Assembly (NCBI GenBank): GCA_028748975.1
Contig: JAQTPI010000005.1
Coordinates: forward strand, 8,933-72,932
Reading direction: 5' to 3'
DNA length: 64,000 nt
From: Patescibacteria group bacterium
GTDB taxonomy: Bacteria; Patescibacteriota; Patescibacteriia; UBA2196
Positions within the stretch are counted from its first letter, which is position 1. Each line of letters starts with the position of its first letter. Under the pieces are notes generated by a model. That model saw only the letters and a list, made by a program, of their open reading frames with translations. It ran no database searches and had not been told where the DNA came from. Of this stretch, positions 4,711 to 56,095 are shown in pieces. Position numbers and translations under genes: made by a program.

Positions 4711-6081
4711 ATGAAAATAAGATTTTTTGGCGTTATATTAATATTTTTGGCCACAATTTTGGCTCCAGTGGCGCCAGCACTGGCGCAGTTTACTTTTAAT
4801 CCCCATTATGTTCTTTCGGACCAGGAATTGACGAATTATTCCAGTATGACTATTGACCAAATCAACGCTTTTTTGAAAAGCAAGGGCGGAATTTTGGCAA
4901 ACTATATTGATCCTAATGTGCGCATGTCTATTCCGCAGTTGATTTATGAATCTTCACAGATGTATAAAATTAATCCGCGCTACGCTTTAGTGCTTTTGCA
5001 AAAAGAACAAAGCTTGATTACGGATGAAGCGCCGACTCAAGGACAATTGAATTGGGCCACTGGTTATGGCTGTCCGGATTCGGGCGGCTGTAATCCAAAA
5101 TACCAAGGACTGGGCAACCAGATTGATTGGGGCGTCGGCGCGATTAGGTTTTATCTTGATAATCCAAACCAGTTTCGTTTTCAGACCGGCAGAACTTACA
5201 CTGTTGATGGCCAAAGCGTGACCATGCAAAATGACGCCACCACCGCGCTGTATATTTACACGCCGCATTTACATGGCAATGAAAGTTTGGCGCGCATTTG
5301 GACGGAATGGTTTTCCCAAAATTATCCTGATGGTTCGCTGTTACAAGACAACGAAGATGGCAGTGTTTGGCTGATTCAGGGCAATTCACGCCGTTTGTTT
5401 TCTTCCAAAGTGGCTTTGGTTTCGCGTTATTCCACCAAACAATTAATTCCAGTGGAACCGAATGAACTGGAAAAATATCAAATTGGCACACCAATTAAAT
5501 ATGCCAACTATTCTTTACTGCGCATTGAAACGGGTGGAATTTATTTATTAGATAATGATGTGGTTAGGCCCATAACTTCCATGAAAGCTTTTAAACTCCT
5601 TGGTTTTAATCCGGAAGAGGTTATGAATGTAAAAACAACCGATATTGCCGATATCCCGCGTGGCGAATCGATTACTATTGAAAGCACTTTCCCAACTGGC
5701 GGACTTTTGCAGGATAAAGCCACGGGCGGAGTGTATTTTGTCCAAAACGGTAAAAAATATCCGATTTGGGCCAAGCAATTATTAAATTTATATTACAAAA
5801 CAAAGAAAATTGTGAAAGTAACAGCGGAAGAACTGAAGCAATATCCGACTGGCAATCCAATTAAATTTAAAGATGGCGAACTCTTGAAATCGGACAAAGA
5901 AAGCACTATTTATTTTGTTTCTAACGGCGCACGCCGGCCGTTTGTGTCTGAAGCGGCTTTTAAAGAATTGGGTTATAAACTGACAAACGTGATTGTTACC
6001 ACGGATAAACTTTTGAGTTTGCATCCGATTGGCGAAGTGATTACTTCAGCGAATTTTGTGAGCGCAAGCAGCACCAAATAA
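4711..6081 (+). CDS. secreted protein with tandem ~55-aa repeats
   Basis: signal peptide MKIRFFGVILIFLATILAPVAPALAQ; repeated G.VY.V.NG.KRP..S..AF..LGY modules. Confidence 0.6.
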   Translation: MKIRFFGVILIFLATILAPVAPALAQFTFNPHYVLSDQELTNYSSMTIDQINAFLKSKGGILANYIDPNVRMSIPQLIYESSQMYKINPRYALVLLQKEQSLITDEAPTQGQLNWATGYGCPDSGGCNPKYQGLGNQIDWGVGAIRFYLDNPNQFRFQTGRTYTVDGQSVTMQNDATTALYIYTPHLHGNESLARIWTEWFSQNYPDGSLLQDNEDGSVWLIQGNSRRLFSSKVALVSRYSTKQLIPVEPNELEKYQIGTPIKYANYSLLRIETGGIYLLDNDVVRPITSMKAFKLLGFNPEEVMNVKTTDIADIPRGESITIESTFPTGGLLQDKATGGVYFVQNGKKYPIWAKQLLNLYYKTKKIVKVTAEELKQYPTGNPIKFKDGELLKSDKESTIYFVSNGARRPFVSEAAFKELGYKLTNVIVTTDKLLSLHPIGEVITSANFVSASSTK

Positions 6082-11410: not shown

Positions 11411-11547
11411 CCTGTCCTGAGGGGTCCGAGTGAAACAAGGGCGACGAAGGACACCTTGCGAACCAGGGTAGATTATATTTTATATATCTTACCTGTTTGC
11501 CACGGGATCCTTCGTCGTCGTTCTTACTCCTCCTCAGGATTGAGTCG
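11411..11547. mobile_element. MITE-like element (family A)
   Basis: cctgtcctgaggggtccgag...gggatccttcgtcgtcg...cctcaggattgagtcg. Confidence 0.55.
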
Positions 11548-11552
11548 CGAAT

Positions 11553-11723
11553 TTACTTTACCTTCGTTTCCTTGTGTTTGGTATGCTTGCGGCAAGTATT
11601 GCAAAATTTATTCAGCTCCAGTTTTTCTTTAAGTATTTTTTTATTTTTAGTGCTGAAATAATTGATATTGCGACAAACCGTGCATTCAAAGCCGATGAGT
11701 TTTTCTTTATATTTGGTAGCCAT
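11553..11723 (-). CDS. rpmG: 50S ribosomal protein L33 (below 60-aa ORF-track cutoff)
   Basis: minus-strand translation MATKYKEKLIGFECTVCRNINYFSTKNKKILKEKLELNKFCNTCRKHTKHKETKVK, CxxC...CxxC L33 pattern, TAA stop at 11553-11555. Confidence 0.8.
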   Translation of the reverse strand: MATKYKEKLIGFECTVCRNINYFSTKNKKILKEKLELNKFCNTCRKHTKHKETKVK

Positions 11724-11787
11724 AAAAATTCATTTTATCATGTTAACATTTTAACATATTAACATAAATTAATTTATTATACATCTT

Positions 11788-13184: not shown

Positions 13185-14060
13185 TTAGTATCTCCCTGCC
13201 GAGCCGAACATTTTTATTTTTTCTTCAACTATTTTCTCTATGGCGGCGATGGCTGGTGTCAGCACTTGGCGCGGGTCATAGATTAAAGAATTTTCGTTTA
13301 GAATTTCTCTGACCGCGTTGGTGAAGGCTAGGCGCAGTTCGGTATCAATATTAATGATGCGCACGCCAAGTTCAATCGCCGGCTCAATCTGATTTTTTTT
13401 AATGCCCGAAGCGCCATGCAAAACGATCGGAGTGGCTGGCAAATTATTATGAATTTTTTTCAAGCGCAATAAATCCAAATCGGGCACGCCCACGTCGCGA
13501 AATTTTTTAATGCCATGCATGTTGCCGATGGAAACAGCTAAAGTATCAACGCTGGTTTGGGCTACAAAATCAACCGCTTCTTCCGGGTCGGTGAAAAACG
13601 GCGCCATGTCTTCCGGAGTTTGCGCTTTGTCTTCCACACCGCGCAAAATTCCAAGTTCACCCTGCGCCCAAACGCCGTGTTTATGGGCATAATCAACTGC
13701 TTGTTTGGTTAAAAGAACATTTTCCGAAAAAGGCAGCTCGGAAGCGTCAATGTGGATGGAGGAAAAACCAACACTAATACATTCGGCCACGGAACGAAAA
13801 CTTTTACCATGGTCAAGGTGCAGCGCGATGGGTACTTTTACTTTTTCATCTTTGGCCACGGCTTCCACGATTTGAGTAATGGCTTTCAGACCAGCATATT
13901 CAATAGTGGTTTCGGAAACCTGGATAATGGCCGGGGCGCCGAGTTTGCTCGCGGCGCGCACCACACCCAAGGCCGTTTCCAAATTGAAAATATTAAAAGC
14001 ACCGACGGCATAGCCGTCTTTTTGGGCTTTTTTGATTAGATCTTTGATGTGGACTAACAT
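13185..14060 (-). CDS. fba: class II fructose-bisphosphate aldolase
   Basis: DGYAVGAFN...LHLDHG pattern. Confidence 0.85.
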   Translation of the reverse strand: MLVHIKDLIKKAQKDGYAVGAFNIFNLETALGVVRAASKLGAPAIIQVSETTIEYAGLKAITQIVEAVAKDEKVKVPIALHLDHGKSFRSVAECISVGFSSIHIDASELPFSENVLLTKQAVDYAHKHGVWAQGELGILRGVEDKAQTPEDMAPFFTDPEEAVDFVAQTSVDTLAVSIGNMHGIKKFRDVGVPDLDLLRLKKIHNNLPATPIVLHGASGIKKNQIEPAIELGVRIINIDTELRLAFTNAVREILNENSLIYDPRQVLTPAIAAIEKIVEEKIKMFGSAGRY

Positions 14061-14578
14061 TTATAGTTGAAATATTTTTTAAATGTTTTAGTTGGTGTTT
14101 GTCCCGTAGTATTGATAAAGTTATCTTTATCAACCATCTCTTTCATTCTTTCAAATTCGTTGCGAACCGCCGATATGCGATTGATTCCGGTTGTCCAACA
14201 TTCACGCTCTCTATCTCTTTTTACCATTGCTTCCGTGGTCGGAAATAAAATTTTAATCTCCAATTTGTCTCCAAATTCTCTTTTAAACATTTCGAAAAAA
14301 TCTAAGTAATTTCCAAAAATAATGTAATCGAGCACAACATCGTTCTCGCCGTTATTAAATATTTTTTTAACTTTAATAAAAATCTTTTGATGTGCCTGCT
14401 TCAACTTTTCAGAATTTTCTGGAAACCATCGACCTCCATTAGGAAAGAATTTGGTATCCAAATTATCACCATCAATCTTGATAAATCCGCATTTTTCAAC
14501 CAATAAATTAGCGATTGTGGTTTTACCAGAACCCCCAGGACCGGTTAAAATCAACACTTTTTTATCTGTTTTTCTCAT
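14054..14578 (-). CDS. P-loop NTPase / small-molecule kinase-like protein
   Basis: Walker A GPGGSGKTT near N-terminus, 174 aa. Confidence 0.55.
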   Translation of the reverse strand: MRKTDKKVLILTGPGGSGKTTIANLLVEKCGFIKIDGDNLDTKFFPNGGRWFPENSEKLKQAHQKIFIKVKKIFNNGENDVVLDYIIFGNYLDFFEMFKREFGDKLEIKILFPTTEAMVKRDRERECWTTGINRISAVRNEFERMKEMVDKDNFINTTGQTPTKTFKKYFNYKC

Positions 14579-14588
14579 AATTGTTATT

Positions 14589-15362
14589 TTATTCAGTTTC
14601 TACGGCCCGTATTAATGATAGGAACTTTTCCGCTTTCAAACTAGCGCCGCCGACTAAGGCGCCGTCAATTACTCCCGGTTTAATAAAATCCATAACATTG
14701 CTTTCATCCACGCTGCCGCCGTAAATTATGGAAATATTATTTTTTATAATTTCATGGCTGAAAAATTCCGGCAAAAGACCGCGAATTACGGCAGAGGCGT
14801 GCTGAGCTTCTTTTGGTTCGACGGCTTGGCCTGAACCAATCACCCAGACTGGTTCATAGGCGATGATTAAATTTTGATTATTATTTAATTTAACATCTTG
14901 GAGCGCTTTAGTAATTTGCTGAATTAAAATTAGGTCGGTTTTGCCAATCTGCCTTTCTTCAAAAGTTTCGCCAACACAAAGAATCGGCGTTAAATCATTA
15001 GCCAGACAGACTTTTATTTTTTGATTAATTTCTTCATTGGTTTCTTTTTGATACTGGCGCCGTTCCGAATGGCCGATAATAACATAATCTACGCCCAATT
15101 CTTTCAGTTGGCTGGGCGAGGTTTCACCAGTATAGGCGCCTTTTTCATGATAAAAAACATTCTGCGCGCCGAGTTTTATTTCTGATTTTTTAATAGCTTC
15201 CGCCACCGCTGATAGGGCCGCAAAAGACGGGCATAAAATCAGTTCAATGTTTTGCTTTAATGTTTTAATGCTTTCATGTTTTAATGAGTTCGCCAAATCC
15301 GCCGCTTCTTTATTTGTAAGTTGCATCTTCCAGTTGGCGATAATATAGGTTTTTTTACTCAT
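14589..15362 (-). CDS. tpiA: triosephosphate isomerase
   Basis: ANWKM...GAQN...GETS...IIGHSERR motifs. Confidence 0.9.
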   Translation of the reverse strand: MSKKTYIIANWKMQLTNKEAADLANSLKHESIKTLKQNIELILCPSFAALSAVAEAIKKSEIKLGAQNVFYHEKGAYTGETSPSQLKELGVDYVIIGHSERRQYQKETNEEINQKIKVCLANDLTPILCVGETFEERQIGKTDLILIQQITKALQDVKLNNNQNLIIAYEPVWVIGSGQAVEPKEAQHASAVIRGLLPEFFSHEIIKNNISIIYGGSVDESNVMDFIKPGVIDGALVGGASLKAEKFLSLIRAVETE

Positions 15363-45565: not shown

Positions 45566-47404
45566 TTATCTCTTTAACACCGACAAATATGCTTCCGCCG
45601 GAATATCAACTCTCCCCCGCCCCAGGGCTTTCATTTTTTTCTTGCCTTTTTTCTGTTTGTCCAAAAGTTTGTTTTTGCGCGAAACATCGCCACCGGAAAG
45701 AGTGCCGATGACGTCTTTGCGATACGGCGCCACGCGCGAAGAAGCAATAACTTTGCCGCCTTTTTGCTTGCCAATGTTTTGATAGCCGAGCGTGGCCTGA
45801 ATTTTGATTTCAAACATCTGCTTGGGCAAAGTGTCTTTCAAGGCATCCACGATTTTTCGGCCGACTTCATAGGCCGAATCGCGATAGACAATCGTGGCCA
45901 AAGAATCTATCATTTCATCGGCGACCACAATATCCAATCTTTCCACTTCGCAGGGACGATAACCGATTAAATCATAATTAAGCGAGGCATAGCCGGAAGA
46001 AACGCTTTTTAATTTGTCATAAAAATCAGTCAAAAGCGAGGCCAAGGGCAATTCATAATGCAAATTGAGGCGGTTTTCCGACAAGTAGGTGGTGTTGATG
46101 TAGCTGCCGCGTTTTTCCGCCACGAGCTGCATAATTCCGCCAAGATATTCTTTGGGTGAGATGATGTCAATTCTGACCCAGGGCTCTTCCACCGCGATAT
46201 TTTGCAGATTATTGGGTAGTTCCTGCGGCGAACGAATAATTTTTTCTTTGCCATTTTCAATTAATTTGTAGGCGACGCTTGGTACAGTAACCATCAAATC
46301 CAATTTATGTTCACGGTGCAGGCGTTCCTGAATTATTTCCAAATGCAAAAGACCTAAGAATCCGCAGCGGAAACCCGGGCCGAGCGCCGGCGAATGTTCG
46401 GGCTCAAAACTTAAAGAAGCATCAGTCAGTTTTATTTTTTCCAAGCCCTCGCGCAAATCTTCAAATTCAATTCCTTCTTTGCAAAAAAATCCAGCAAAAA
46501 CCATGGGCTTAATTTCTTTATATCCCGGCAAAGCCAAAGATGAAAAATTTTGGTCTTCTTTATTTTTCGCTAAAGTCACGGTGTCGCCGACACGACAGGA
46601 AGAGAGTTCTTTAAAACCGGTAACAATGTAACCGATTTCACCGGCGCGCAAAATTTCGCTTTTGATTTTTTGCGGTTTGAAATAGCCGACTTCCAGAACT
46701 TCGCTTTCTTTGTTGGTACCCATGAGTAGAATTTGATCGCCGCGTTTGACTTCGCCGTTCAAAAGGCGCACATAGGCCACGACGCCGCGATAATCATCAT
46801 AGACCGAATCAAAAATCAGAGCTTGAAGTGGTTTTTCGTTTTCGCCAATTGGCGCGGGTACGTTTTTTATAATTTGCTCTAATATTTTTTCCACGTTTTC
46901 TCCGGTTTTGCCGGAAACTTTTAAAATTTCAAAATTGTCAGCCAGAGATTCAATAATCACTTCCTTTATTTCTTCCTCGGCTTCAGGCACATTGGCATTA
47001 GGCAAGTCAATTTTATTAATGACTGGGATGATTTTCAGGCCCTGGTCAGTGGCCAGGTGATAATTGGCTAATGTTTGCGCCTGTACGCCTTGGGTGGCAT
47101 CCACGAGCAAAATGGCGCCTTCCACCGCGGCGAGCGAACGGGAAACTTCATAGGTGAAGTCCACATGGCCGGGAGTGTCAATCAAATTTAAAATATATTT
47201 TTGGCCGTCTAATTCATAGTCCATGCGCACCGGTTGTAATTTGATGGTGATGCCCCGCTCGCGCTCCAATTCCATCGTGTCCAAAAGTTGGTTCATCATT
47301 TTTCTTTTTTCCACGGTTTTGGTCAATTCCAAAAAACGGTCAGCCAGAGTTGACTTACCGTGATCAATATGGGCGATGATGCAGAAATTACGGATGTTAT
47401 TCAT
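45566..47404 (-). CDS. lepA: elongation factor 4 (LepA); ORF-track N-terminal extension to 47476 probably artefact of stop-free heptamer repeat
   Basis: AHIDHGKST G1 motif at MNNIRNFCIIAHIDHGKST, full LepA architecture. Confidence 0.9.
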   Translation of the reverse strand: MNNIRNFCIIAHIDHGKSTLADRFLELTKTVEKRKMMNQLLDTMELERERGITIKLQPVRMDYELDGQKYILNLIDTPGHVDFTYEVSRSLAAVEGAILLVDATQGVQAQTLANYHLATDQGLKIIPVINKIDLPNANVPEAEEEIKEVIIESLADNFEILKVSGKTGENVEKILEQIIKNVPAPIGENEKPLQALIFDSVYDDYRGVVAYVRLLNGEVKRGDQILLMGTNKESEVLEVGYFKPQKIKSEILRAGEIGYIVTGFKELSSCRVGDTVTLAKNKEDQNFSSLALPGYKEIKPMVFAGFFCKEGIEFEDLREGLEKIKLTDASLSFEPEHSPALGPGFRCGFLGLLHLEIIQERLHREHKLDLMVTVPSVAYKLIENGKEKIIRSPQELPNNLQNIAVEEPWVRIDIISPKEYLGGIMQLVAEKRGSYINTTYLSENRLNLHYELPLASLLTDFYDKLKSVSSGYASLNYDLIGYRPCEVERLDIVVADEMIDSLATIVYRDSAYEVGRKIVDALKDTLPKQMFEIKIQATLGYQNIGKQKGGKVIASSRVAPYRKDVIGTLSGGDVSRKNKLLDKQKKGKKKMKALGRGRVDIPAEAYLSVLKR

Positions 47405-47509
47405 AAGCTTGAATATAAATAAATTATAGCTAAAATTTCTTAATTTGGCAATTGAAAGGTAATAAGTAATAAGCAACTAGTAATAAGGGGATTGTAAATA
47501 AAAGATAAA

Positions 47510-47540
47510 ACAAAAAACCGCCTTTTTTGGCGGTCTTCTT
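47510..47540 (-). terminator. hairpin terminator (T tract on minus strand)
   Basis: aaaaaaccgccttttttggcggt. Confidence 0.5.
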
Positions 47541-47544
47541 TCTC

Positions 47545-47700
47545 GCCATTTACTGGCGCAGGAATCCAGAGTTTAAAATTAATGTTTTTGAGAAGAGAGA
47601 TTTTGTTTTTTCCCAAGGCGGCGGGCGCCCGAAGGAACCGTGCCGGTGAATGGGAGTTTAATTCTAAACTCGTTTTTTGTTTTCCCGCGCCTGTAAATAA
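47545..47700 (-). ncRNA. candidate small ncRNA, long imperfect hairpin (possibly SRP/4.5S-like); strand uncertain
   Basis: ends pair (ggcgcagg/cgcgcctg; agtttaaaattaa/ttaattctaaact), apical gcgcccgaaggaaccgtgcc resembles SRP domain IV GGAAGGAAGC region; terminator adjacent on minus strand. Confidence 0.3.
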
Positions 47701-47770
47701 TGACAAATAACTGACAACTTATAATATACGACTTATAATTTTCAACTAAAGTATAGCAAAAACAATAAAT

Positions 47771-47810
47771 AGTAACAAGTAATAAGTAATAAGTAACTAG
47801 TAATAAAGAG
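47771..47810. repeat. heptamer tandem repeat (TAAYAAG)n
   Basis: agtaacaagtaataagtaataagtaactagtaataaag. Confidence 0.6.
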
Positions 47811-48921
47811 AAAGTTTGATTAATTTTGCTATAGCAAAATTAATCAAACTTAGTAATTGGGAAAGAAAATAAAAAACGGCCAAGAGTGAGGGACTCCCGA
47901 GCCGCGTGAAACTTTTAAGAAAAATTGCCTTACCGTAAAAAATTTACCTCACCGGAAATGACAATTGTTTCAGTCGTTCCCGGGAGAATTGTTGTCTCTG
48001 TATTGTTTTTTTCTTCAAAAAAATGTATGAGGCGAGTGGACGGGTTAAAATCTATTTGCCCGCTCACCACTCTCCACTCCCTACTTCCAACAGTGACTGT
48101 TCTCAACATGTTTTCCTCCAATCATTCTGAAATTGTAATTGCGGTTCTGATCTTTCCCTCACCTGACTTCCCTTTTCTTTCTAAATCGCGAGTGAACGCG
48201 ATTTTATACGCGAGTTTACGCCAAAAGAAAAAAGGATGCCGGGTGAAGGGCGACGGTGTGACGTCGCTTTGAAAAAAAATGGAAAGGGTGTTTGATATCC
48301 CAAAAGAGATAAATGGCACCAAACACCCTTTCCCCTGTCCCAGCAAATTGTTTTGACGTGCCCAAGACCGGGCCGCTACTGACACTTTGCTGGAGAAGTG
48401 GATTGAAGTCGGGAGAAAATTTACTCCTCACTCGCCTTGATGTCCTTTCGAACAGTCATAGACTAATTGCTTCAACCCCCTCATTTATAATCTTTTGAAA
48501 AATTATAAATGAGGAGGAAGAAAATTTTGGTTTATTTAAATTATTAATTTTATCAGATTATTAGATTATTAACTTGCGCCCGCGGAACTGGAGATTAGCT
48601 TTTGATGCTGCTAGAGAAAGAGCATCAAGAACCATGAAGATTATTGAAACCCCTCGCTTTTAAGCCGTCGTCTGATCTCGCGGTTTAGAGCGGAAGAGAC
48701 CTCTGGGCGATTAGCTTGGAATATGGAATATTGAAGCTAAGGCCACGAGAGCAAACGGCTTAGTAGCAAGGGGGAGCATGGTTTGTTCTGTCTGCCTGTA
48801 TTTTGCCGAAGCAAAATTATGGCAGACCAGCAACTTCGCACGAGGGAAAAATTCAGGTTGCCCCAAATTTTTCCTCTTTGAAACTGCTGGCTAATCTCCA
48901 TGTCGGCGGGGAGATTTTTAT

Positions 48922-49041
48922 CCTCCCCTTTCGAAGGGGAGGTGGGTTGAGCGGAGCGAAACCCGGAGGGGTTGTGTGATTATTTTTACCACAACCACCC
49001 CGCCTCGTTTCACTCGGCACCCCTCCTTCGAAAGGAGGGGA
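48922..49041. mobile_element. paired-hairpin element (family B)
   Basis: cctcccctttcgaaggggagg ... cccctccttcgaaaggagggg. Confidence 0.6.
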
Positions 49042-49104
49042 TATAAAAATCAAAATTTATATTTTTAACGAGCATTTTTCCAATCTCTGGCTTCTACTAG
49101 AGGG

Positions 49105-49192
49105 TGTCATCCTGATCCGCCGGCTGGCGGAGAAGGATCTCGTAGAATTTTTACGAGATTCCTCCCCCGAGTACTCGGGGTTCGGAATGACA
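49105..49192. mobile_element. MITE-like element (family A)
   Basis: gtgtcatcctgatccgccggctggcggagaaggatctcgtag...gattcctcccccgagtactcggggttcggaatgaca. Confidence 0.65.
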
Positions 49193-49267
49193 TTCGTTTG
49201 TAAAACTCATAGATTGAGGGCCGAAACGATTAATGAAATATCATTTCGGCCTGATGTGGTGATTTTA

Positions 49268-49441
49268 CTACGAGGGTAATTCATCCAATGTTTCGTGGTC
49301 CTTCATCTTGCGTAGGTCTTCACGAACCTTGCGCAAGTCTTGGCGGGTCTTTTTGTTTTCGTATGTTACATGACTTACGACTATTATGGAGCACCCACCT
49401 ATGCCCACAAGTAAAAGAACAAGCGGCACTAACATATGCAT
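49268..49441 (-). CDS. small single-TM peptide (57 aa; ORF track 49268..49507)
   Basis: MHMLVPLVLLLVGIGGCSIIVVSHVTYENKKTRQDLRKVREDLRKMKDHETLDELPS; leader ttaaaagatgggggtatgcatATG nearly identical to leader of peptide gene at 52170. Confidence 0.4.
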   Translation of the reverse strand: MHMLVPLVLLLVGIGGCSIIVVSHVTYENKKTRQDLRKVREDLRKMKDHETLDELPS

Positions 49442-49641
49442 ACCCCCATCTTTTAAATGAACTTTTTCCGACCGAGAATCGGCCGGGGAAATTTGGATGG
49501 CCACCAAAAGGAGTATTAACCTTCTTCGGTTATCCTGACCCGGAGGACAGGAGCCTTTGCCTATCCGCCCATCGCGGACATTAGAGGTGTTTCTCCTCTA
49601 ACGGCTGGTGGCCGTTAATTTTTATTTTTCTAAATTATCAA

Positions 49642-49707
49642 TTGAGAAGGCGGGATTCGAACCCGCGACCGCCTGTTCCCCGAGCAGGTGTGCTGACTTA
49701 CTCCCCA
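49642..49707 (-). other. non-canonical tRNA-like element (acceptor plus T-arm, truncated body)
   Basis: minus strand tggggag...gcggg ttcgaat cccgc cttctca a; acceptor pairs with 2 G-U; only 34 nt between acceptor and T-arm, no canonical anticodon arm. Confidence 0.35.
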
Positions 49708-50255
49708 ATCTTTTATTTTTATTTTTCCAAACCATCAATATAAATGTCTGGATTTCCGCCTAAGGTGGAAATGACAAAATTGATAACTTGGAAAAATTGG
49801 GGAAAGCTGATTCTGAGAGGCGTTATGACGCCTAGAATCTCTTTTCCCCAATGCCATTTCTAGGGCTGGCGATACCCTTATTACCCGCATACACGATGGT
49901 ATGCAACTTTGAAGCTCGGGTCGATTGGACCCTGTGAGCCACCCGCGGCAACCGCGGCCAGCTCTTTGCCCGCTTTTTTGTCTGACCTCTGACACGCGAG
50001 CTAATCAGAGGCGGATGTAATGAGAGACGGGAGAAATGGGCGGCTGATCATCGCGGTGTTCATGAAACCCGCGCGGATTTACCGGGCACTTCGCCATCAT
50101 CAACCATTTAAGAACCCAATCCTCAATCACGTCTCTCTCGAAAATGCACCGATGTTGGCAATCACCATCTTTTAGGGACGGGTCAGCCCGTTTGTCTCCA
50201 GAACAATGCCGGAGGACGGGGCTCGTAAAACGAGCGCGAACATTGGCACATTTTG

Positions 50256-50328
50256 TCGGAATGGCAGGATTCGAACCTGCGGCCCCATGCTCCCAAAGCA
50301 TGTGCGCTACCAGCTGCGCTACACTCCG
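50256..50328 (-). tRNA. tRNA-Pro (anticodon TGG)
   Basis: acceptor cggagtg/cattccg (one G-U), D-arm tagcgcagctggtagcgca, anticodon stem catgc/gcatg loop ttTGGga, T-loop ttcgaat. Confidence 0.75.
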
Positions 50329-50342
50329 AATAAATATTTTGT

Positions 50343-50468
50343 TGTCATCCCGAGCGAACAACGACCTCTCTCCATCTCTCCCCTTATTAAGGGGAGAGGG
50401 ACGAACTGTTCCCCTCTCCTTTACAAGGAGAGGGTCGGGGGTGAGGTCGTCACTCAATCGGAATGACA
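50343..50468. mobile_element. composite element (family A ends with family B-like paired hairpins)
   Basis: gtcatcccgagcgaacaacgacc...ctccccttattaaggggagag...cccctctcctttacaaggagaggg...gtcgtcactcaatcggaatgaca. Confidence 0.6.
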
Positions 50469-52056
50469 AAATAATTTATTTTTTTAAACTTCTCTAAGCC
50501 ATCAAATTTTATAAAATTACCTTGATAGCTTGGAAAAATGGCGGAGATATAGAATCGCCGCCGAGAATGACTGTTGTCGTCAACGCATTGGACCTTAAAC
50601 CTTTCACTGTCGGGTGTCCACGGATGTCGCGAATCTCTCAAACTTGAAAAAAAATCGGGTGGCGGTCGCGAGGTTGACCTGGAACCCGCACAAAGGCAGG
50701 CTCGCCACAAAGGGCGCGATCAGCGGAAAGTAGTCGGCATGTCTTAAGCCGCGCTACTATCACCGAATGCGCGCCGCCACCCGGTTCGTGCGAAAGTCCC
50801 CCGCAATTCCCTAAGAACGCCTCGGCGGGTTAATTCCCGAAGGGACTTTCCAGCACGTGCCAGGGTAAAGGACGATGAACCGCCCTGGTTCGGTTTCGGT
50901 GTTCGGCCGGCAGTTGTTGTGCCGAAGCGGCAGGCTGGGAGAAATCGGCGAAATTCCGACTCGTCCGCTACACCCGGCGCTTTTCTCGTTCGGGCCCCCG
51001 GTTTGACGTCCGCGGGGGCAGGTTCAGCCGCACTCACGATGGCGGCTTTTCGATGTGGCCGGCCGAAACACCAGTCACGGACCCGGGAGCTTTCACCCGG
51101 TTCGCTTTTTTCCACACCGGATTGGGCCGGAGGGACGCGGCGATAGGGCGAGGTTGCGGCGAACCGCTGGGGAACCATCCCATAAACCTCTGGTTTTCTC
51201 TCCACATCCTATCGTTAGTGCGTCCGCCCCCAGCCATCCGGTCCGGACAGGCATGTGCAGCGTGGCTCGCGCGGTTTGGGGCTTCAACGCAAGACGCTCC
51301 GCCCCAAATCGCAATCCGTCCAACTGCCCCACGACTGGCGCAGGGACATGCCCGCTGCTTGGCCGCCGTTGTGGCCATCGTACCCGTCCGAATCCGCCCA
51401 CGGCTTTGGCCTAGCTGAAAAGCTTTGGCCCCGATGCCGCGCGCGGAATTTTCACAGGATCTTCAATGTTGGATTCACCAAGTAACGTAGCTGCAAGCGC
51501 CCAGACGCCTGTGCAATCCCGCCAGCTTGGCGATGAGTTTGTTGGCCATGGTATGGCCTCCGTCGACAGAAATTCAAAACTAGGTTTTTCGGCCAACCAC
51601 CCACGGTATTTGGTTGCCGAATACTCTTTTGGCCTTACGCTAATTAATTTTTGCTGCCTCCGTAGAGATAGACAAAATAATTAATTAACGTTAGCGTTTA
51701 CATCCGTGGCGTAGCTGCAATCGGCCCCCCGACTGTGCAATCTCGCCAACAGATTTGTTGCGTGTCTATTGGTTTCGTATGCCCTCCTTTTCGCTTAGGC
51801 GACCCTGGCCCCACGCTGGGTTAGGTCGAGTTAAAGTAAGGATTGGCAAATTTTTTTATTTCCTCCTCTATTTAATAATTTGTTTTCGCCTTAATGGGCG
51901 AGATGTTAAGTATTAAGAAATATTAATACCCAACATGCCGACCACAGTTAATAAAAAACTCAAAACTCAATTAACAAAACTTAAGACTAATTAAGAAATT
52001 GAAATAAGGATCCTTGCCGACCAACTGTGATGGTATATCAGTCGGCAAGGATGTTT

Positions 52057-52170
52057 TTACTTTAGAAGCACCCGAGAAATTTGATCAAGTTGATAGATGA
52101 TGGTAATTAGGGCCACCACAACTAAGCCCATAAAAAACCCTATCATACGTTTCTCTGAGTTTGTCAGCAT
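52057..52170 (-). CDS. small hydrophobic peptide (37 aa), type I toxin-like
   Basis: MLTNSEKRMIGFFMGLVVVALITIIYQLDQISRVLLK; conserved upstream caaggaaaa...ttaaaagcgggggtatgca; hairpin terminator ccttgccgac..gtcggcaagg downstream. Confidence 0.4.
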   Translation of the reverse strand: MLTNSEKRMIGFFMGLVVVALITIIYQLDQISRVLLK

Positions 52171-52302
52171 TGCATACCCCCGCTTTTAAGTGAAAGATAT
52201 TTTTCCTTGTTTCAATTCCCCACTAATTGTGAAATTGAAATAAGGAACCTTGCCGGCTGAAACACTGTGATGTGTTCCGGCTGGCAAGGATTTTGAAGGT
52301 TA

Positions 52303-52467
52303 TTACAAAAGATGCAGCACCTTCATATTGAGTATTGTGATGGCCACGATTATAATCCCAATCAGCACGCCGTTTTTCATTCCTTGGGAGTAACCGTTGG
52401 TGTAACCGTCGTCATATCCCCTGCCGTAACCAATGGAAAGACCTATCCCTAAACCCATAATGACTGA
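52303..52467 (-). CDS. small Gly/Tyr-rich single-TM peptide (55 aa; ORF track 52303..52509)
   Basis: SD aaaaaaggagacaatt then MSVIMGLGIGLSIGYGRGYDDGYTNGYSQGMKNGVLIGIIIVAITILNMKVLHLL; same upstream gggaattgaaacaaggaaaa element and hairpin terminator as neighbour. Confidence 0.45.
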   Translation of the reverse strand, partial: SVIMGLGIGLSIGYGRGYDDGYTNGYSQGMKNGVLIGIIIVAITILNMKVLHLL

Positions 52468-52756
52468 CATAATTGTCTCCTTTTTTATTATGAATTTTCC
52501 TTGTTTCAATTCCCCAATATTTAATTTTAAAGGTCAGCGATTTTTTTCCGTAATACTTAAGTATAGCACAACCACAGAACTTGTCAAGTGGATAACTTAA
52601 ATAAATTCTAAAAAGGCTGTTTTTTGGCTAATTTAAGCCAAAACAAATACCCGAATTAGTACGAATTTTACCCGAATTTATCCGAATATTACGGAATTTT
52701 TAATTTTAACAAAATATTAAAAAATATCAAATTTGGGGATAAGTGGGGATGAAAAA

Positions 52757-52830
52757 GGCGGTCCGATCCGCCAGTTGGCGGATCGGACCGCCTCAAAATA
52801 TATCTTTATATCCTTATATCTTTATTTTTA
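52757..52830. mobile_element. MITE-like element
   Basis: ggtccgatccgccagttggcggatcggaccgcc...tatatccttatatctttat. Confidence 0.5.
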
Positions 52831-52875
52831 GTTTTTGTCTTCCCTTATTACTTAATTACTAGTTACTTATTACTA

Positions 52876-55800
52876 CTATCTCTCCGCCACCACCCCAAAA
52901 TATCCATCTTTTAATAAATCCGCGGAATAAGTAATCACGCTTCCCTCTTCTGCCACGCCAGAGCCGGCGGTGGCCTGAATTTTATAATTGGCTGGCAAAA
53001 TTAGTTCGCTTTGGAAATCAATCGCGTTCATACCAAGTTGTTTATCAACAACCAAACTGTATTTGGCTTCGTCATTTTTTCCAAATAGAGCCGCAAACCA
53101 TTGTTTAATTTTATTATTGCTTTTGGCCGTACCAAACTGGAAAGGCAGTTTATATTTGATGGTGACTGTTTTTTCCTGGCCCGGCGCCACTTGCAGCCAG
53201 TTGCCAAAAACAGTTTTGCCAAATTCAGAAGAAACACGCGTGCCCGTGGCTTCGTCCAAAGAAACATTGGTTTCCACCGCGGCCAAAGTTTTGTCAGCAC
53301 TCATGCCGTCTTGGCTCGCGGAATATTTAAAAAGATAATCCGGATTAAAATTAAAACCGGTGGCGGAAATAAGTTCCGCGCCAGCGGGCACATAGAAACG
53401 GACATAATCAACATTATTGTCGCCTTCAAAAAGTTTACCCAATTCGCCATTATGCTGGCGCGTCAAACTGACGGTCGCGACCATGGCACCGGTTACGTCA
53501 ACTTCAACAGAGTGGCGCACGGTGTTTTTGATAACCGCATCGGTTTTGCCGCCGGAGATATTGGTATGCACGACCATTAAATAATCCTGATTATTTTCAG
53601 TGGCGCGAATCTTACCGGCCCAGCCAAAACGTTCGGCCAAATCTTCCGTATTTTTATCAGAAAAATAGAAAAGAATTTTTTCCTCGCTTAAAGCTTGGCT
53701 TAAGCCGGCGAGTACCGGCAGATAATCCTTGGTGTTTAAATTCATCAGACGCTCCAAAAGCACGGGCGCCATATCCGCGATAATTTCTTTGGGCCGATTT
53801 TTATTCTTGTCATATTCCAATTCCACGGCCGTTTGCATGGCAATGGTAAAATTTTCCGCGCTTAAGGTCTGCTTATATTCTTTCATTTCAATCGGCCCCA
53901 CAATTTTCAATAAATTGGCAACAGTATCTTGAGTTAAGCTGATGATGCCGTCAACCGAAGAACCGCCGTAATTATTCTCATAAAACCAAATTATTTTCTC
54001 GGCACTTGTCGGCCAATTCGGAAACCAGTTGGCATTCCAAATCTGCCAAGCCGGCGAAAAAATCTGCAGTGGCTTCGGCGCGGCCACTAAAACTTGGCTG
54101 CTGCTTTTTAAATCATAAAGGCCGCCGCCGGGAATATCCATTTTTTTGACCCGGCCCTTGTCCACATCCACCACGGCAAAAGAACCCATAAAACCACCGG
54201 TAGGCCTTAGTTCGTTGGAATTTTGGAAAACTACCAAATAACGCTTGGAAGTTTCGGCACCCAAAATATCCTGGCTGAAAAGTAAAATATCTTTGAGGCC
54301 GGCAATGGAGGTTTGCCAGTTTTTGGCGCCAATTTGCAGCGCGGAGAATTTTTCTTGGGCATCACTCGGCAATGAATCTTTGTCAATTTCATTAATCAAG
54401 TTGAGCGCGGCATTGATTTTTGTTTCTTCCGAACCAATGGTCTGGTGCAAAAAAGAAATTTTTTCCGTGAGAGCTGGTTCTGGCGCGTTAAAGACCGAAA
54501 GAGCTTGAGTAATTTTTTGGGCCGAAGCGGAAAGATATTGCCCGGCTGCCAGAAGTTTTTCGCCGTCGCGCGCTTTGGGTACCAGCTTGATTAAAGAATT
54601 AGTCAGAGGCCCCAATTCTTTAATTTGCTTTTGCGCCAGATAAAAAGCACTTTCAGCGCGGCCAAAATTAGCCACGGCGGCAGTGATGTCGTTTTCTGAA
54701 AAATTGCCGGCTGCTTGTTCCAAATAATTCAAACCCTGCGAAGAGGTGCCCAAAACATCGCCTTGAGTTTTTTGAGCCGCGCGCCAAGAATTCCAAACCA
54801 GAAGAGGCAAAACGATAATCAAAGCGGTCAAACCAAAATTAATCAAAGGTTTTAAAGAAAATTTTCTTTCGGCTAAAACCATGGCCGGGGCTTCGCGTTT
54901 TTTAAAAAGATAGCCAATTGACCGGATTAAATAGGAAATATTAAACTTGAAAAGTTTGGTGATTTGCCGAACGACAAAAGTTAGGCCAGCCCAAACTCCT
55001 TTTAGGGTGTGATCGACTACAAAATCCAAAAGGCGAAAGGGCGCGGTTAAGGCCTGCCAGAAAAAATATATAAATTTTCCCAAAAGAGTGAGTGGTAAAT
55101 CAAAAGTCCAATAAAAAAAACCGTGGGTGCGCGGAGTGGCAGGAACAGCGATAAAATTATCGGTGCCGCGCGCCAAGCCGGAAGAAATTAAATCCACTTT
55201 CACTTTTTTTATTTTCTTTTTTTGCTTGTTGATTTTTTTCAAATCGGCTTTCAGAGCCAAGTTGGCGGCGTCTTCCGGCATATCAAAACCCAAAATTTCA
55301 CGAACATGCTTTTGGCGCGTGCTTTGTTTTTCTTCTTCCCAAAGATATTTGACTTCGGACATGGGGGTCAAAGGAGCGGTTTCTGTCGTTTCTTTAATCT
55401 GGTAATCTTTAAATTTGGGCGCGCGCAAATCCACCACATGGGCGGAAGCACGGCGGTTATTTTTGATTTTAAGTTTGGATTCTTGAGGCAAATCCACCAA
55501 GGGTTCGGCTGTGACTGGAAAGATATAATTTTCCGGCAATTCACTTGGCAATTCGGAAATATTTATTTTTGCCTTGAATTCCTGCCAGGTCATTTGCGGC
55601 AGAACTTTATTATCTTTTTCTATTTCTTCCATTTTATTTTCAATTTCCGGCAATTTTTTTTCTATTTTTTCATCATTTTCCGCCAGACTGATTAAAACTC
55701 GCGGCAGAGAGATGTCCATGACAAAATTTTTGTGCGGACGGCCGCGCGCGCCTTTTTTGGGCGCGTATTTCAAAAGCCACTCTTCTTGAGGCGAGAGAAC

Positions 55801-56004
55801 TTTGTGCGGACGGCCGCGTTCACGTTTTTCCATTTTGGCCAAAGCCGCCAATTCTTCCGGCGTCCATTCTTTCTTGGGCCGGCCACGCGGTCTTTTTGGC
55901 TTATTTTGCAACGCCAAAAGCTCGTCCGCTGTGAAGACTTTACGAGGTCTACCACGTTTTTTCTTTTCCGTGAACTGTGAATTTTTTATGGTATTTTCTG
56001 ACAT
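52876..56004 (-). CDS. large membrane protein: N-terminal AT-hook repeats, TM region, DUF4012-like extracytoplasmic domain
   Basis: four GRP-core AT-hook-like motifs (KRGRPRK, RGRPKK, RGRPHK x2) in first 90 aa; hydrophobic segments; C-terminal region with LRPTGGFMGSF motif; 1042 aa. Confidence 0.65.
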   Translation of the reverse strand: MSENTIKNSQFTEKKKRGRPRKVFTADELLALQNKPKRPRGRPKKEWTPEELAALAKMEKRERGRPHKVLSPQEEWLLKYAPKKGARGRPHKNFVMDISLPRVLISLAENDEKIEKKLPEIENKMEEIEKDNKVLPQMTWQEFKAKINISELPSELPENYIFPVTAEPLVDLPQESKLKIKNNRRASAHVVDLRAPKFKDYQIKETTETAPLTPMSEVKYLWEEEKQSTRQKHVREILGFDMPEDAANLALKADLKKINKQKKKIKKVKVDLISSGLARGTDNFIAVPATPRTHGFFYWTFDLPLTLLGKFIYFFWQALTAPFRLLDFVVDHTLKGVWAGLTFVVRQITKLFKFNISYLIRSIGYLFKKREAPAMVLAERKFSLKPLINFGLTALIIVLPLLVWNSWRAAQKTQGDVLGTSSQGLNYLEQAAGNFSENDITAAVANFGRAESAFYLAQKQIKELGPLTNSLIKLVPKARDGEKLLAAGQYLSASAQKITQALSVFNAPEPALTEKISFLHQTIGSEETKINAALNLINEIDKDSLPSDAQEKFSALQIGAKNWQTSIAGLKDILLFSQDILGAETSKRYLVVFQNSNELRPTGGFMGSFAVVDVDKGRVKKMDIPGGGLYDLKSSSQVLVAAPKPLQIFSPAWQIWNANWFPNWPTSAEKIIWFYENNYGGSSVDGIISLTQDTVANLLKIVGPIEMKEYKQTLSAENFTIAMQTAVELEYDKNKNRPKEIIADMAPVLLERLMNLNTKDYLPVLAGLSQALSEEKILFYFSDKNTEDLAERFGWAGKIRATENNQDYLMVVHTNISGGKTDAVIKNTVRHSVEVDVTGAMVATVSLTRQHNGELGKLFEGDNNVDYVRFYVPAGAELISATGFNFNPDYLFKYSASQDGMSADKTLAAVETNVSLDEATGTRVSSEFGKTVFGNWLQVAPGQEKTVTIKYKLPFQFGTAKSNNKIKQWFAALFGKNDEAKYSLVVDKQLGMNAIDFQSELILPANYKIQATAGSGVAEEGSVITYSADLLKDGYFGVVAER

Positions 56005-56020
56005 TTATCTATATATTATG

Positions 56021-56095
56021 CCCGCCTCGCGTCGACTTGCCCGCTTCGCTAAATCGAGGCGAGCGTCTGACGCGAGTCGAGGCGGGCGAATTACT
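56021..56095. repeat. GC-rich palindromic element (family C) directly upstream of large membrane protein start
   Basis: gcccgcctcgcgtcgacttgcccgcttcgctaaatcgaggcgagcgtctgacgcgagtcgaggcgggcgaatt; homolog of 18578-18652. Confidence 0.6.

Follow-up and report, generated by a model that had tools for sequence, protein, structure and literature searches.

The large 'ornate' RNAs of bacteria, among them OLE, GOLLD and ROOL, are non-coding molecules of hundreds of nucleotides (nt) to about 1 kb with multi-branched predicted structures. A location in the vicinity of tRNA genes is typical of GOLLD and ROOL (PMC12286853), and OLE has membrane partners (PMC10898510). Further structured-RNA candidates have come from long intergenic regions of high guanine and cytosine (GC) content in AT-rich genomes, the GC-IGR and DIMPL candidates (PMC11109978, PMC8632094, PMC8723152). 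Here we analyze a GC-rich island in a 64,000-nt stretch of DNA, referred to as the window, from a Patescibacteria group bacterium (assembly GCA_028748975.1, contig JAQTPI010000005.1, positions 8,933 to 72,932); coordinates below are those of the window unless another contig is named. The island belongs to no described family and in kind resembles the GC-rich intergenic RNA candidates and the large ornate RNAs (PMC11109978, PMC12286853). We propose provisionally, with our confidence evenly divided, that it encodes a lineage-restricted, fast-evolving, long structured non-coding RNA with a conserved core of 206 to 237 nt.

The island is similar to OLE, GOLLD and ROOL in its size class, in being non-coding and in its multi-branched predicted structure; like GOLLD and ROOL it is located in a gene-poor region near tRNA genes, and its flanking by small membrane-protein genes is loosely reminiscent of OLE. 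In contrast to these three families, it matches none of their Rfam models even at E ≤ 10, it is missing in the next relatives, and it has only short conserved junction strands in two closely related species, whereas OLE, GOLLD and ROOL have many strongly conserved nucleotides across phyla. With the GC-IGR and DIMPL candidates it shares the properties of a long GC-rich intergenic region in a lower-GC genome without a coding signal, but those candidates were accepted after covariation in many representatives, and the island has two. Patescibacteria are not mentioned in the three reports cited above for such candidates, and a search of the literature turned up no account of an element of this kind in that group.

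The Patescibacteria (candidate phyla radiation, CPR) have tiny, densely packed genomes, and to our knowledge next to nothing has been learned about the non-coding RNAs in them, apart from those that are universal. In such a genome it is unusual to find a gene-poor region of 5.4 kb with a candidate GC-rich RNA of about 1 kb and two well-supported smaller structured RNAs.

A GC-rich non-coding island at a conserved position

The island is situated in the 5.4-kb interval between lepA (45566-47404, minus strand) and a gene encoding a DUF4012 protein (52876-56004, minus strand), an interval without a convincing long open reading frame (ORF), and all of the neighboring genes are on the minus strand. 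An NCBI entry with 100% identity to the DUF4012 protein carries the annotation of a 'Patescibacteria group bacterium' metagenome-assembled genome. The GC content of the core, 50600-51560, was found to be 61.3%, compared to a mean of 40.2% (standard deviation 3.0, maximum 50.7%) for the other 960-nt windows, which corresponds to z = 7.0, and the maximal segment at a threshold of 60% was 50656-51446 (791 nt, 63.8% GC). The original prediction was of an extremely GC-rich, 1.4-kb non-coding core at 50470-51850 inside an AT-rich genome. This interval as a whole is 55.8% GC, with shoulders of 34% (50470-50599) and 47% (51561-51850), and the G/C string quoted as an example is located at 50992-51022. 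Therefore, the GC island is genuine and far beyond the normal range of the window, but its core is about 0.8 to 1.0 kb long with 58 to 66% GC per 200 nt, and the genome is only moderately AT-rich, at about 40% GC (40.7% for the 64-kb window).

The abrupt jump in composition could have been produced by an assembly chimera or by contamination from a high-GC organism, and a related contig (L096, described below) ends in an Illumina adapter within its own GC island (13956-14005), a blemish in the assembly of this public record. However, independent assemblies of two sequencing runs both read through the junctions with 0 mismatches: Logan contig L093 (SRR22315508) corresponds to window positions 50422-56049 and spans the entire island, and Logan contig L097 (SRR22315506) corresponds to 51218-54203, spanning the DUF4012-side AT-to-GC boundary before ending at 51218. 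Furthermore, contig L081, from a different (JGI) metagenome and a different species, has an island of 60% GC in the same slot from the DUF4012 gene to lepA, between the same conserved non-coding blocks. This relative species is also represented by contig L096 (ENA), which is 99.8% identical to L081; the two agree over their common part, with no single-nucleotide polymorphism in the shared part of the island. The two independent assemblies together with the syntenic counterpart in another species rule out assembly chimerism, and we give an artefactual origin of either kind next to no weight. The window strain was identical in both runs, and so there is no strain variation for an analysis of covariation at the population level.

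The only ORF placed in the island by the gene caller encodes 144 amino acids (50744-51178, minus strand), and long stop-free stretches are present in all six frames, as might be expected if the island were a protein-coding gene (an orphan that evolves rapidly or one with a recoded stop codon) or a recent pseudogene. Long open frames are, however, expected by chance at 63% GC. A search with the 144-residue sequence against 5.8 billion proteins recovered only itself, and this ORF is not kept in L081, in which the longest ORF of the island is on the opposite strand and unrelated. A 142-residue frame compared with 1.8 billion representatives gave low-complexity repeat matches only; a concatenated six-frame query found nothing, a result that we do not count because it also missed a database entry with 100% identity. 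The ORFs and the ten longest stop-to-stop frames yielded zero matches in Pfam, NCBIfam and PHROGs, and the island has no consistent period-3 GC signal. A recoded stop codon was rejected because no frame is broken by one type of stop codon alone, mixed types being present in all six frames. The earlier claim that there is no protein-like frame is thus borne out, and we regard a coding gene or recent pseudogene as highly improbable.

Known RNAs were sought with the 4227 models of Rfam 15. The gathering score was applied to the whole window, and a limit of E ≤ 10 to window regions 49400-52400 and 47400-49720 and to the L081 island, the filters being permissive for the two islands. At the gathering score, the whole window contained only tRNAs, and at E ≤ 10 nothing relevant was obtained on the window regions or the L081 island beyond the adjacent tRNA-Pro and a degenerate tRNA-like copy. 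The RNase P RNA models gave no match at either level. The P4 helix of that RNA requires GGAAAGUCC with a distant CCGGCUU-type strand; a GGAAAGUCCC string does occur on the minus strand (50850-50842), but it is not a P4 helix because it pairs with GGGACUUUC only 41 nt away (inverted repeat I11) and not over a long range. Transfer-messenger RNA (tmRNA), which has a body of about 300 to 400 nt with a tag reading frame, closed by a tRNA-like domain of acceptor and T arm, was rejected, as ARAGORN found none and the sole weak Rfam match (about 17 to 22 bits, compared to a gathering score of 47) was the decayed tRNA-Pro copy at 49639-49707, outside the island. No small-subunit, large-subunit or 5S rRNA model matched at E ≤ 10, nor did any group I or group II intron model; there is no ORF for a reverse transcriptase or homing endonuclease, and the island is intergenic. 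OLE, GOLLD, ROOL, HEARO, raiA and other curated large non-coding RNAs were likewise not found among the Rfam matches of either island. These searches agree with the previous report that no convincing hallmark motifs of RNase P, tmRNA, rRNA and group II introns were seen, and no Rfam family was found for the island.

The island is present as a single copy in the window, without terminal inverted repeats, tandem structure or a transposase ORF, and we rejected a repeat or mobile element such as a miniature inverted-repeat transposable element (MITE) or an insertion sequence; MITE-like hairpins are located beside the island, with none within it. A comparison of the island with plasmids and phages by blastn gave zero matches. 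A motif scan of viral contigs gave one chance match, in an actinophage coding region of 65 to 70% GC, and nothing for the conserved 5′ block described below. No nucleotide similarity to the island was found in the lepA neighborhoods of 80 species-representative genomes. A fragment of a known gene was therefore not detected among protein families, plasmids or phages. Taken together, these results show that the island is non-coding, belongs to no known family, is not an artefact and has a conserved position.

A predicted core fold common to two species

The LepA sequences of the window and of L081 are 90.5% identical in amino acids, and the four-fold degenerate sites of the gene are only 54% identical; therefore, unconstrained DNA should be nearly unalignable between the two species. 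The island of the window and that of L081 were left unaligned by nhmmer and blastn, and a global alignment was near random. A collinear chain of 9-mers common to the two islands nevertheless exceeded that of shuffled sequences (z of 2.6), and the reverse-complement control was low.

The best-conserved stretch of the island is motif 1, GGCGGAUUCGGACGGGUA (51381..51398, minus strand): as the 18-mer GGCGGAYUCGGACGGGUA (51398-51381), it is identical at 17 of 18 positions to L081 14143-14160, with a score equal to the maximum of 100 shuffles. The second-best local alignment is motif 2, CUGCACAUGCCUGUCCGGAC (51241..51260, minus strand; CUGCA..CCUGUCCGGAC), which aligns window 51260-51241 with L081 14318-14338. 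Motif 2 was misaligned when the islands were aligned globally with MAFFT, which made both this alignment and the RNAalifold prediction from it unreliable. The two motifs are complementary to each other over 10 to 11 base pairs (bp) and are predicted to pair in both species. In partition-function folds of the whole islands, helix Pa is formed by the 5′ half of motif 1 and an upstream UUCCGC, with a probability of 0.87 to 1.0 in the window and 0.98 in L081, and helix Pb (10 to 11 bp) by the 3′ half of motif 1 and motif 2, with a probability of 0.83 in the window and 1.0 in L081. Motif 1 would thus contribute the 3′ strand of Pa and the 5′ strand of Pb, and motif 2 the 3′ strands of Pc and Pb. 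Two G·U pairs occupy the same positions of Pb in both species, and these would be A·C mismatches if the opposite strand were read.

These helices delimit a predicted structured core of 206 nt (51242..51447, minus strand), consisting of Pa and of Pb enclosing hairpin h1 and helix Pc, with Pc in turn enclosing two hairpins. The minimum free energy (MFE) of the window core was −115.6 kcal/mol (z of −4.84), with none of 200 shuffles as stable and an MFE structure near the centroid; the antisense MFE was −102.1, so that the sense strand is more stable by 13.5 kcal/mol. The L081 core (14101-14337, 237 nt) had a z of −3.08, and its sense strand was more stable than the antisense by 6.9 kcal/mol. When folded independently, the two cores adopted an identical abstract shape, [][[][[][]]], which was given by 1.3 to 1.8% of dinucleotide shuffles. 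The GC-rich non-coding core at 50600..51560 (minus strand) would form the body of the proposed RNA. On the minus strand the whole island had a folding z-score of −4.98, against −2.26 on the plus strand, and the L081 island had one of −5.2, compared to −0.98 and −1.79 for coding controls and −2.2 for a third control (−1.0 to −2.2 for the coding and GC-rich controls together). Thus, both the island and its core have a thermodynamic stability beyond that of shuffled controls in both species.

Several predicted helices differ in sequence between the two species and yet stay paired. Helix Pa2, CGCGGC:GCCGUG in the window, reads CUCGC:GCGAG in L081, with two to three pairs changed on both sides; helix Pc, GCAGCG:CGCUGC in the window, reads GCAGU:ACUGC in L081, with one such pair; and h1 has a different sequence at the same position, also with one pair changed on both sides. 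In a structure-fitted alignment of the two cores, 97% of cells pair and seven pairs are changed on both sides; 4 of 500 shuffles did as well, and slid controls paired 31 to 43% of cells. A covariance model (R1) for which the sole input was the window core with the fold predicted for it found L081 14101-14337 end to end; at 15.4 bits and a rough E of about 0.12, this was its only non-self match in 188 kb, whereas a sequence-only model (R2) of the same alignment found nothing at E ≤ 10. The comparison of predicted folds shows that the two species share the core topology, with a few pairs changing on both sides yet remaining paired. The original prediction offered either a structured RNA or recent foreign DNA as the explanation of the island; the common core fold, the retained G·U pairs, the compensatory pairs and the structure-dependent detection favor the former, and no match to plasmids, phages or any protein family was obtained for the latter.

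The proposed transcript and competing explanations

If the island is transcribed as one RNA, the molecule would be about 1.3 kb long here (with a range of 1.0 to 1.3 kb) and about 0.95 kb in L081. The minus strand is the probable sense strand because of the features at the 5′ and 3′ ends, the G·U asymmetry and the orientation of every neighboring gene. We infer transcription, strand, ends and the unity of the RNA from these properties of the DNA.

The transcript would start at about 51945 with a proposed 5′ domain of two hairpins, Block 7 (51859..51950, minus strand), an AT-richer conserved block 80 to 90% identical to L081 13780-13868. In the order of the minus strand, Block 7 contains hairpin 1 (51903-51936), hairpin 2 (51886-51901) and a GGAGGA box. 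Hairpin 1 has 14 bp, of which two are G·U pairs common to both species and one shows a compensatory change from A-U to G-C, and hairpin 2 has changed from CGCC/GGCG to CGUC/GACG between the two species. The segment 51945-51859 is presented as the putative 5′ end of the RNA. A variable region would follow (51449..51858, minus strand), locally duplicated in this genome as two copies of a unit of about 100 nt with repeat cores at 51486-51524 and 51710-51748, and this duplication accounts in part for the extra length of the window island upstream of the core. The copies of the direct repeat (D6) are 82% identical and differ by an 8-nt indel, and so there is no conserved peptide. A D6 stem is UGGCG/CGCCA in one copy and UGGCG/CGUUA in the other, a change from G-C to G·U that preserves pairing on the minus strand only.

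In the core of 206 to 237 nt, the 18-nt junction strand would close Pa on its 5′ side and, with its 3′ side, form Pb together with the second motif 130 to 170 nt downstream, so that Pb would enclose two nested three-way junctions. Directly 3′ of the core there is a predicted long irregular hairpin (51117..51241, minus strand), with a counterpart at the equivalent position of L081 (14338-14427). After it comes an A-rich linker with a CCGGG-loop-CCCGG hairpin (51083..51116, minus strand). The same element comes after the long hairpin of L081, as the linker GAGAAAACG and then GCCGGG/CCCGGC at 14439-14456. A less conserved 3′ part would end at about 50650 in a GC-rich stem and eight U residues. 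This 3′ terminal domain (50647..50783, minus strand), recognized from inverted repeat I3 and from the folds, has a stem of CGGGUGGCGG (50783-50774) with CCGCCACCCG (50665-50656) that closes a branched domain and is followed by the eight U residues at 50654-50647. The equivalent end in L081 is a 16-bp hairpin (14681-14728) followed by ACUUUUCC. Both islands thus have a stem and a U run at the end that is distal on the minus strand, and these may act as a terminator.

The high GC content would result from selection for stable helices, the sequences of which would drift rapidly while the junction strands and the topology were kept. By analogy, we guess that such an RNA could have a structural or scaffolding role, perhaps together with the small membrane proteins encoded on either side. 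A more ambitious and distinctly doubtful extension of the proposal is that the island represents the first member of a new class of large (about 1 to 1.3 kb), structured non-coding RNA confined to a Patescibacteria lineage, clustered with at least two undescribed structured RNAs (about 190 and 330 nt) and serving as an RNA scaffold or in a ribonucleoprotein, possibly with small membrane proteins. If the island RNA proves real, a large lineage-specific RNA would be added for organisms that are not culturable alone, with a concrete target for metatranscriptomics.

Several observations weigh against the structured-RNA proposal. The neighboring non-coding blocks are 84 to 90% identical between the two species, and the island outside of the core and the 5′ block is essentially unconserved; established large bacterial RNAs are usually far better conserved at such an evolutionary distance. 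The island is found in two species only (n = 2), which rules out a statistically valid covariation test. The more distant contigs L082 and L083 keep the order of DUF4012, non-coding blocks and lepA, as well as the other RNA blocks, and have short spacers in place of an island, which is therefore dispensable in the wider clade. As for the core, the pair counts are biased because the alignment was fitted to the structure, the R1 match is marginal at the score given above, and the core limits used in the shape test were taken from the conserved motifs, which favors the outer '[][...]' part of the shape. Local 200-nt folding z-scores inside the island are modest and uneven (0 to −3.6), and the whole island of L081 folds equally well on both strands. 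At the ends, the 3′ stem of the window has a 108-nt branched loop and is not a canonical terminator, and no convincing promoter was found for the island. A promoter-like box, TTGATAGCTTGGAAAAAT, at the left edge (50522..50539, plus strand) faces into the island and is the main hint of plus-strand transcription; it is missing at the matching edge in L081 and may not belong to the element.

The principal competing explanation, which we consider somewhat unlikely, is that the island is a weakly constrained or non-functional GC-rich insert that was gained by the common ancestor in a rearrangement-prone hot spot and is now decaying, with the shared motifs being leftover homology. The near absence of alignment between islands with well-conserved flanks, and the absence of the island from L082 and L083 despite kept synteny, would be explained in this way; the region has also gathered MITE-like hairpins, a decayed tRNA-Pro duplicate and local duplications, and other Patescibacteria have obviously foreign GC-rich inserts near lepA. 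However, the island has no protein, plasmid or phage homology in any frame and no period-3 trace of a former gene. The GC content is still 60 to 64% in both lineages, although neutral sites are near saturation, and a simple, rough estimate of decay would need an implausibly GC-rich ancestor, an argument weakened in turn by the odd codon usage of this genome (GC content at third codon positions, GC3, of 0.42, and yet 59% GC at four-fold degenerate sites). Furthermore, conservation is highest in precisely those two pieces that make up the strands of one helix, in which G·U pairs are kept, and the core topology is the same in both species. If the island is a decaying insert after all, it is a caution that equating a GC-rich intergenic region with a structured RNA needs comparative support first.

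The available evidence was also evaluated for the possibility that the island consists of several adjacent small elements, namely a structured 3′ or 5′ untranslated region of the neighboring small-protein genes, one small RNA of 200 to 250 nt (the core), terminators and spacers. Conservation is patchy (5′ block, core, one hairpin and end), the local z-scores are uneven, and elsewhere in the region there are separate small RNAs, each with its own promoter-like box. Against this, no internal promoter or terminator is kept between the two species inside the island, and in each of them the raised GC content extends without a break for about 0.9 kb; we consider such a composite improbable and a single structured RNA to be the better reading.

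Two further DUF4012 loci were inspected. A contig of 4.1 kb (P0002) with a DUF4012 homologue of 84% identity, from a relative present in run SRR22388184, stops short of the island position, and a homologue of 66% identity has a different gene downstream.

Neighboring structured RNAs and genomic setting

The rest of the intergenic region contains other structured elements on the minus strand. An element of about 190 nt is located just upstream of lepA (47503-47695, minus strand; L081 16670-16880; L082 11760-11945; L083 5395-5635). Its loop AAAAUCUCUCUUCUC is invariant, it ends in an intrinsic terminator of its own (47539-47512), and it has no Rfam match; 20 of its 61 predicted pairs are compensatory in the four genomes. 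We regard it as a good candidate for a previously undescribed cis-regulatory leader or small RNA tied to lepA. A second non-coding element, of about 330 nt (48579-48910, minus strand; L081 15405-15740; L082 about 11430-11780; L083 about 4740-5100), has a long-range closing stem of 21 nt in the window, formed by 48579-48599 and 48890-48910. The 5′ half of this element is kept in the four genomes, with 20 of 51 pairs compensatory and AUGGAGAUUAG and AACCAUGCUCC invariant, and it also has no Rfam match. Because these two blocks are kept in four genomes with abundant compensatory changes, the intergenic region appears from its sequence to be a cluster of minus-strand structured RNAs, in which the 190- and 330-nt elements are well-supported, and this setting counts in favor of a structured RNA at the island.

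A third element resembles a cloverleaf of about 110 nt (49498-49612, minus strand; L081 14775-14885). Its acceptor-like stem is compensatory, GGCCACC/GGUGGCC in the window and GACCACC/GGUGGUC in L081, and a T-arm-like hairpin is also present in L081. Neither ARAGORN nor Rfam called it a tRNA.

The promoter-like box at the island edge, TTGATAGCTTGGAAAAAT / TTGATAnnTTGGAAAAAT, occurs in four copies in the intergenic region, at 49642 (minus), 49739 (minus), 49780 (plus) and 50522 (plus). Of the minus-strand copies of TTGATAnnTTGGAAAAAT, one immediately precedes the tRNA-like copy and the other the 110-nt RNA, in the manner of promoters, and the plus-strand copies (49780 and 50522) face into GC-rich segments. 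The tRNA-like copy is a decayed tRNA-Pro of 66 nt (49639-49707, minus strand) with GGG in the anticodon loop and a weak D arm. Over 46 nt it shares 78% identity with the intact tRNA-Pro(UGG) at 50255-50328 (minus strand), 614 nt apart, and the segment between the two is 52 to 57% GC and missing from L081. The copy and the intervening segment look like an old duplication or integration remnant.

Long GC-rich, MITE-like hairpins are located at 48915-49047, 49100-49200 and 50340-50470. They are of two types, GTCATCC...GGAATGAC and CCCCTCCTT..AAGGAGGGG, with similar ones in L081, and the L093 assembly breaks within the hairpin at 50340-50470.

On the DUF4012 side of the island, two genes on the minus strand (52057-52170 and 52303-52509) encode small single-pass membrane peptides of 37 and 68 amino acids. 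Each has a copy of a repeated upstream box (52201-52228 and 52495-52522) and, downstream, a repeated hairpin terminator (51986-52019 and 52222-52255), an arrangement that resembles duplicated type I toxin-like cassettes. L081 has a single such gene, 13479-13682.

GC islands of 0.5 to 0.7 kb were also observed within a few kb of lepA in contigs L005 (6851-7411), L043 (7865-8360) and L060 (about 750-1310). These are similar to the island described here in being local GC islands near lepA in genomes of 35 to 43% GC, but they are intact ORFs with GC-rich third positions, encoding small proteins that are Cys-rich, zinc-ribbon-like or membrane-associated, whereas the present island has no ORF. They are unrelated to one another and to the island under study, and look like foreign or mobile genes.

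The odd codon usage mentioned above was seen in 35 long ORFs of the window: only 14% of the four-fold degenerate sites have A, and the two-fold sites strongly favor A or T, with AAA at 86% and GAA at 84%.

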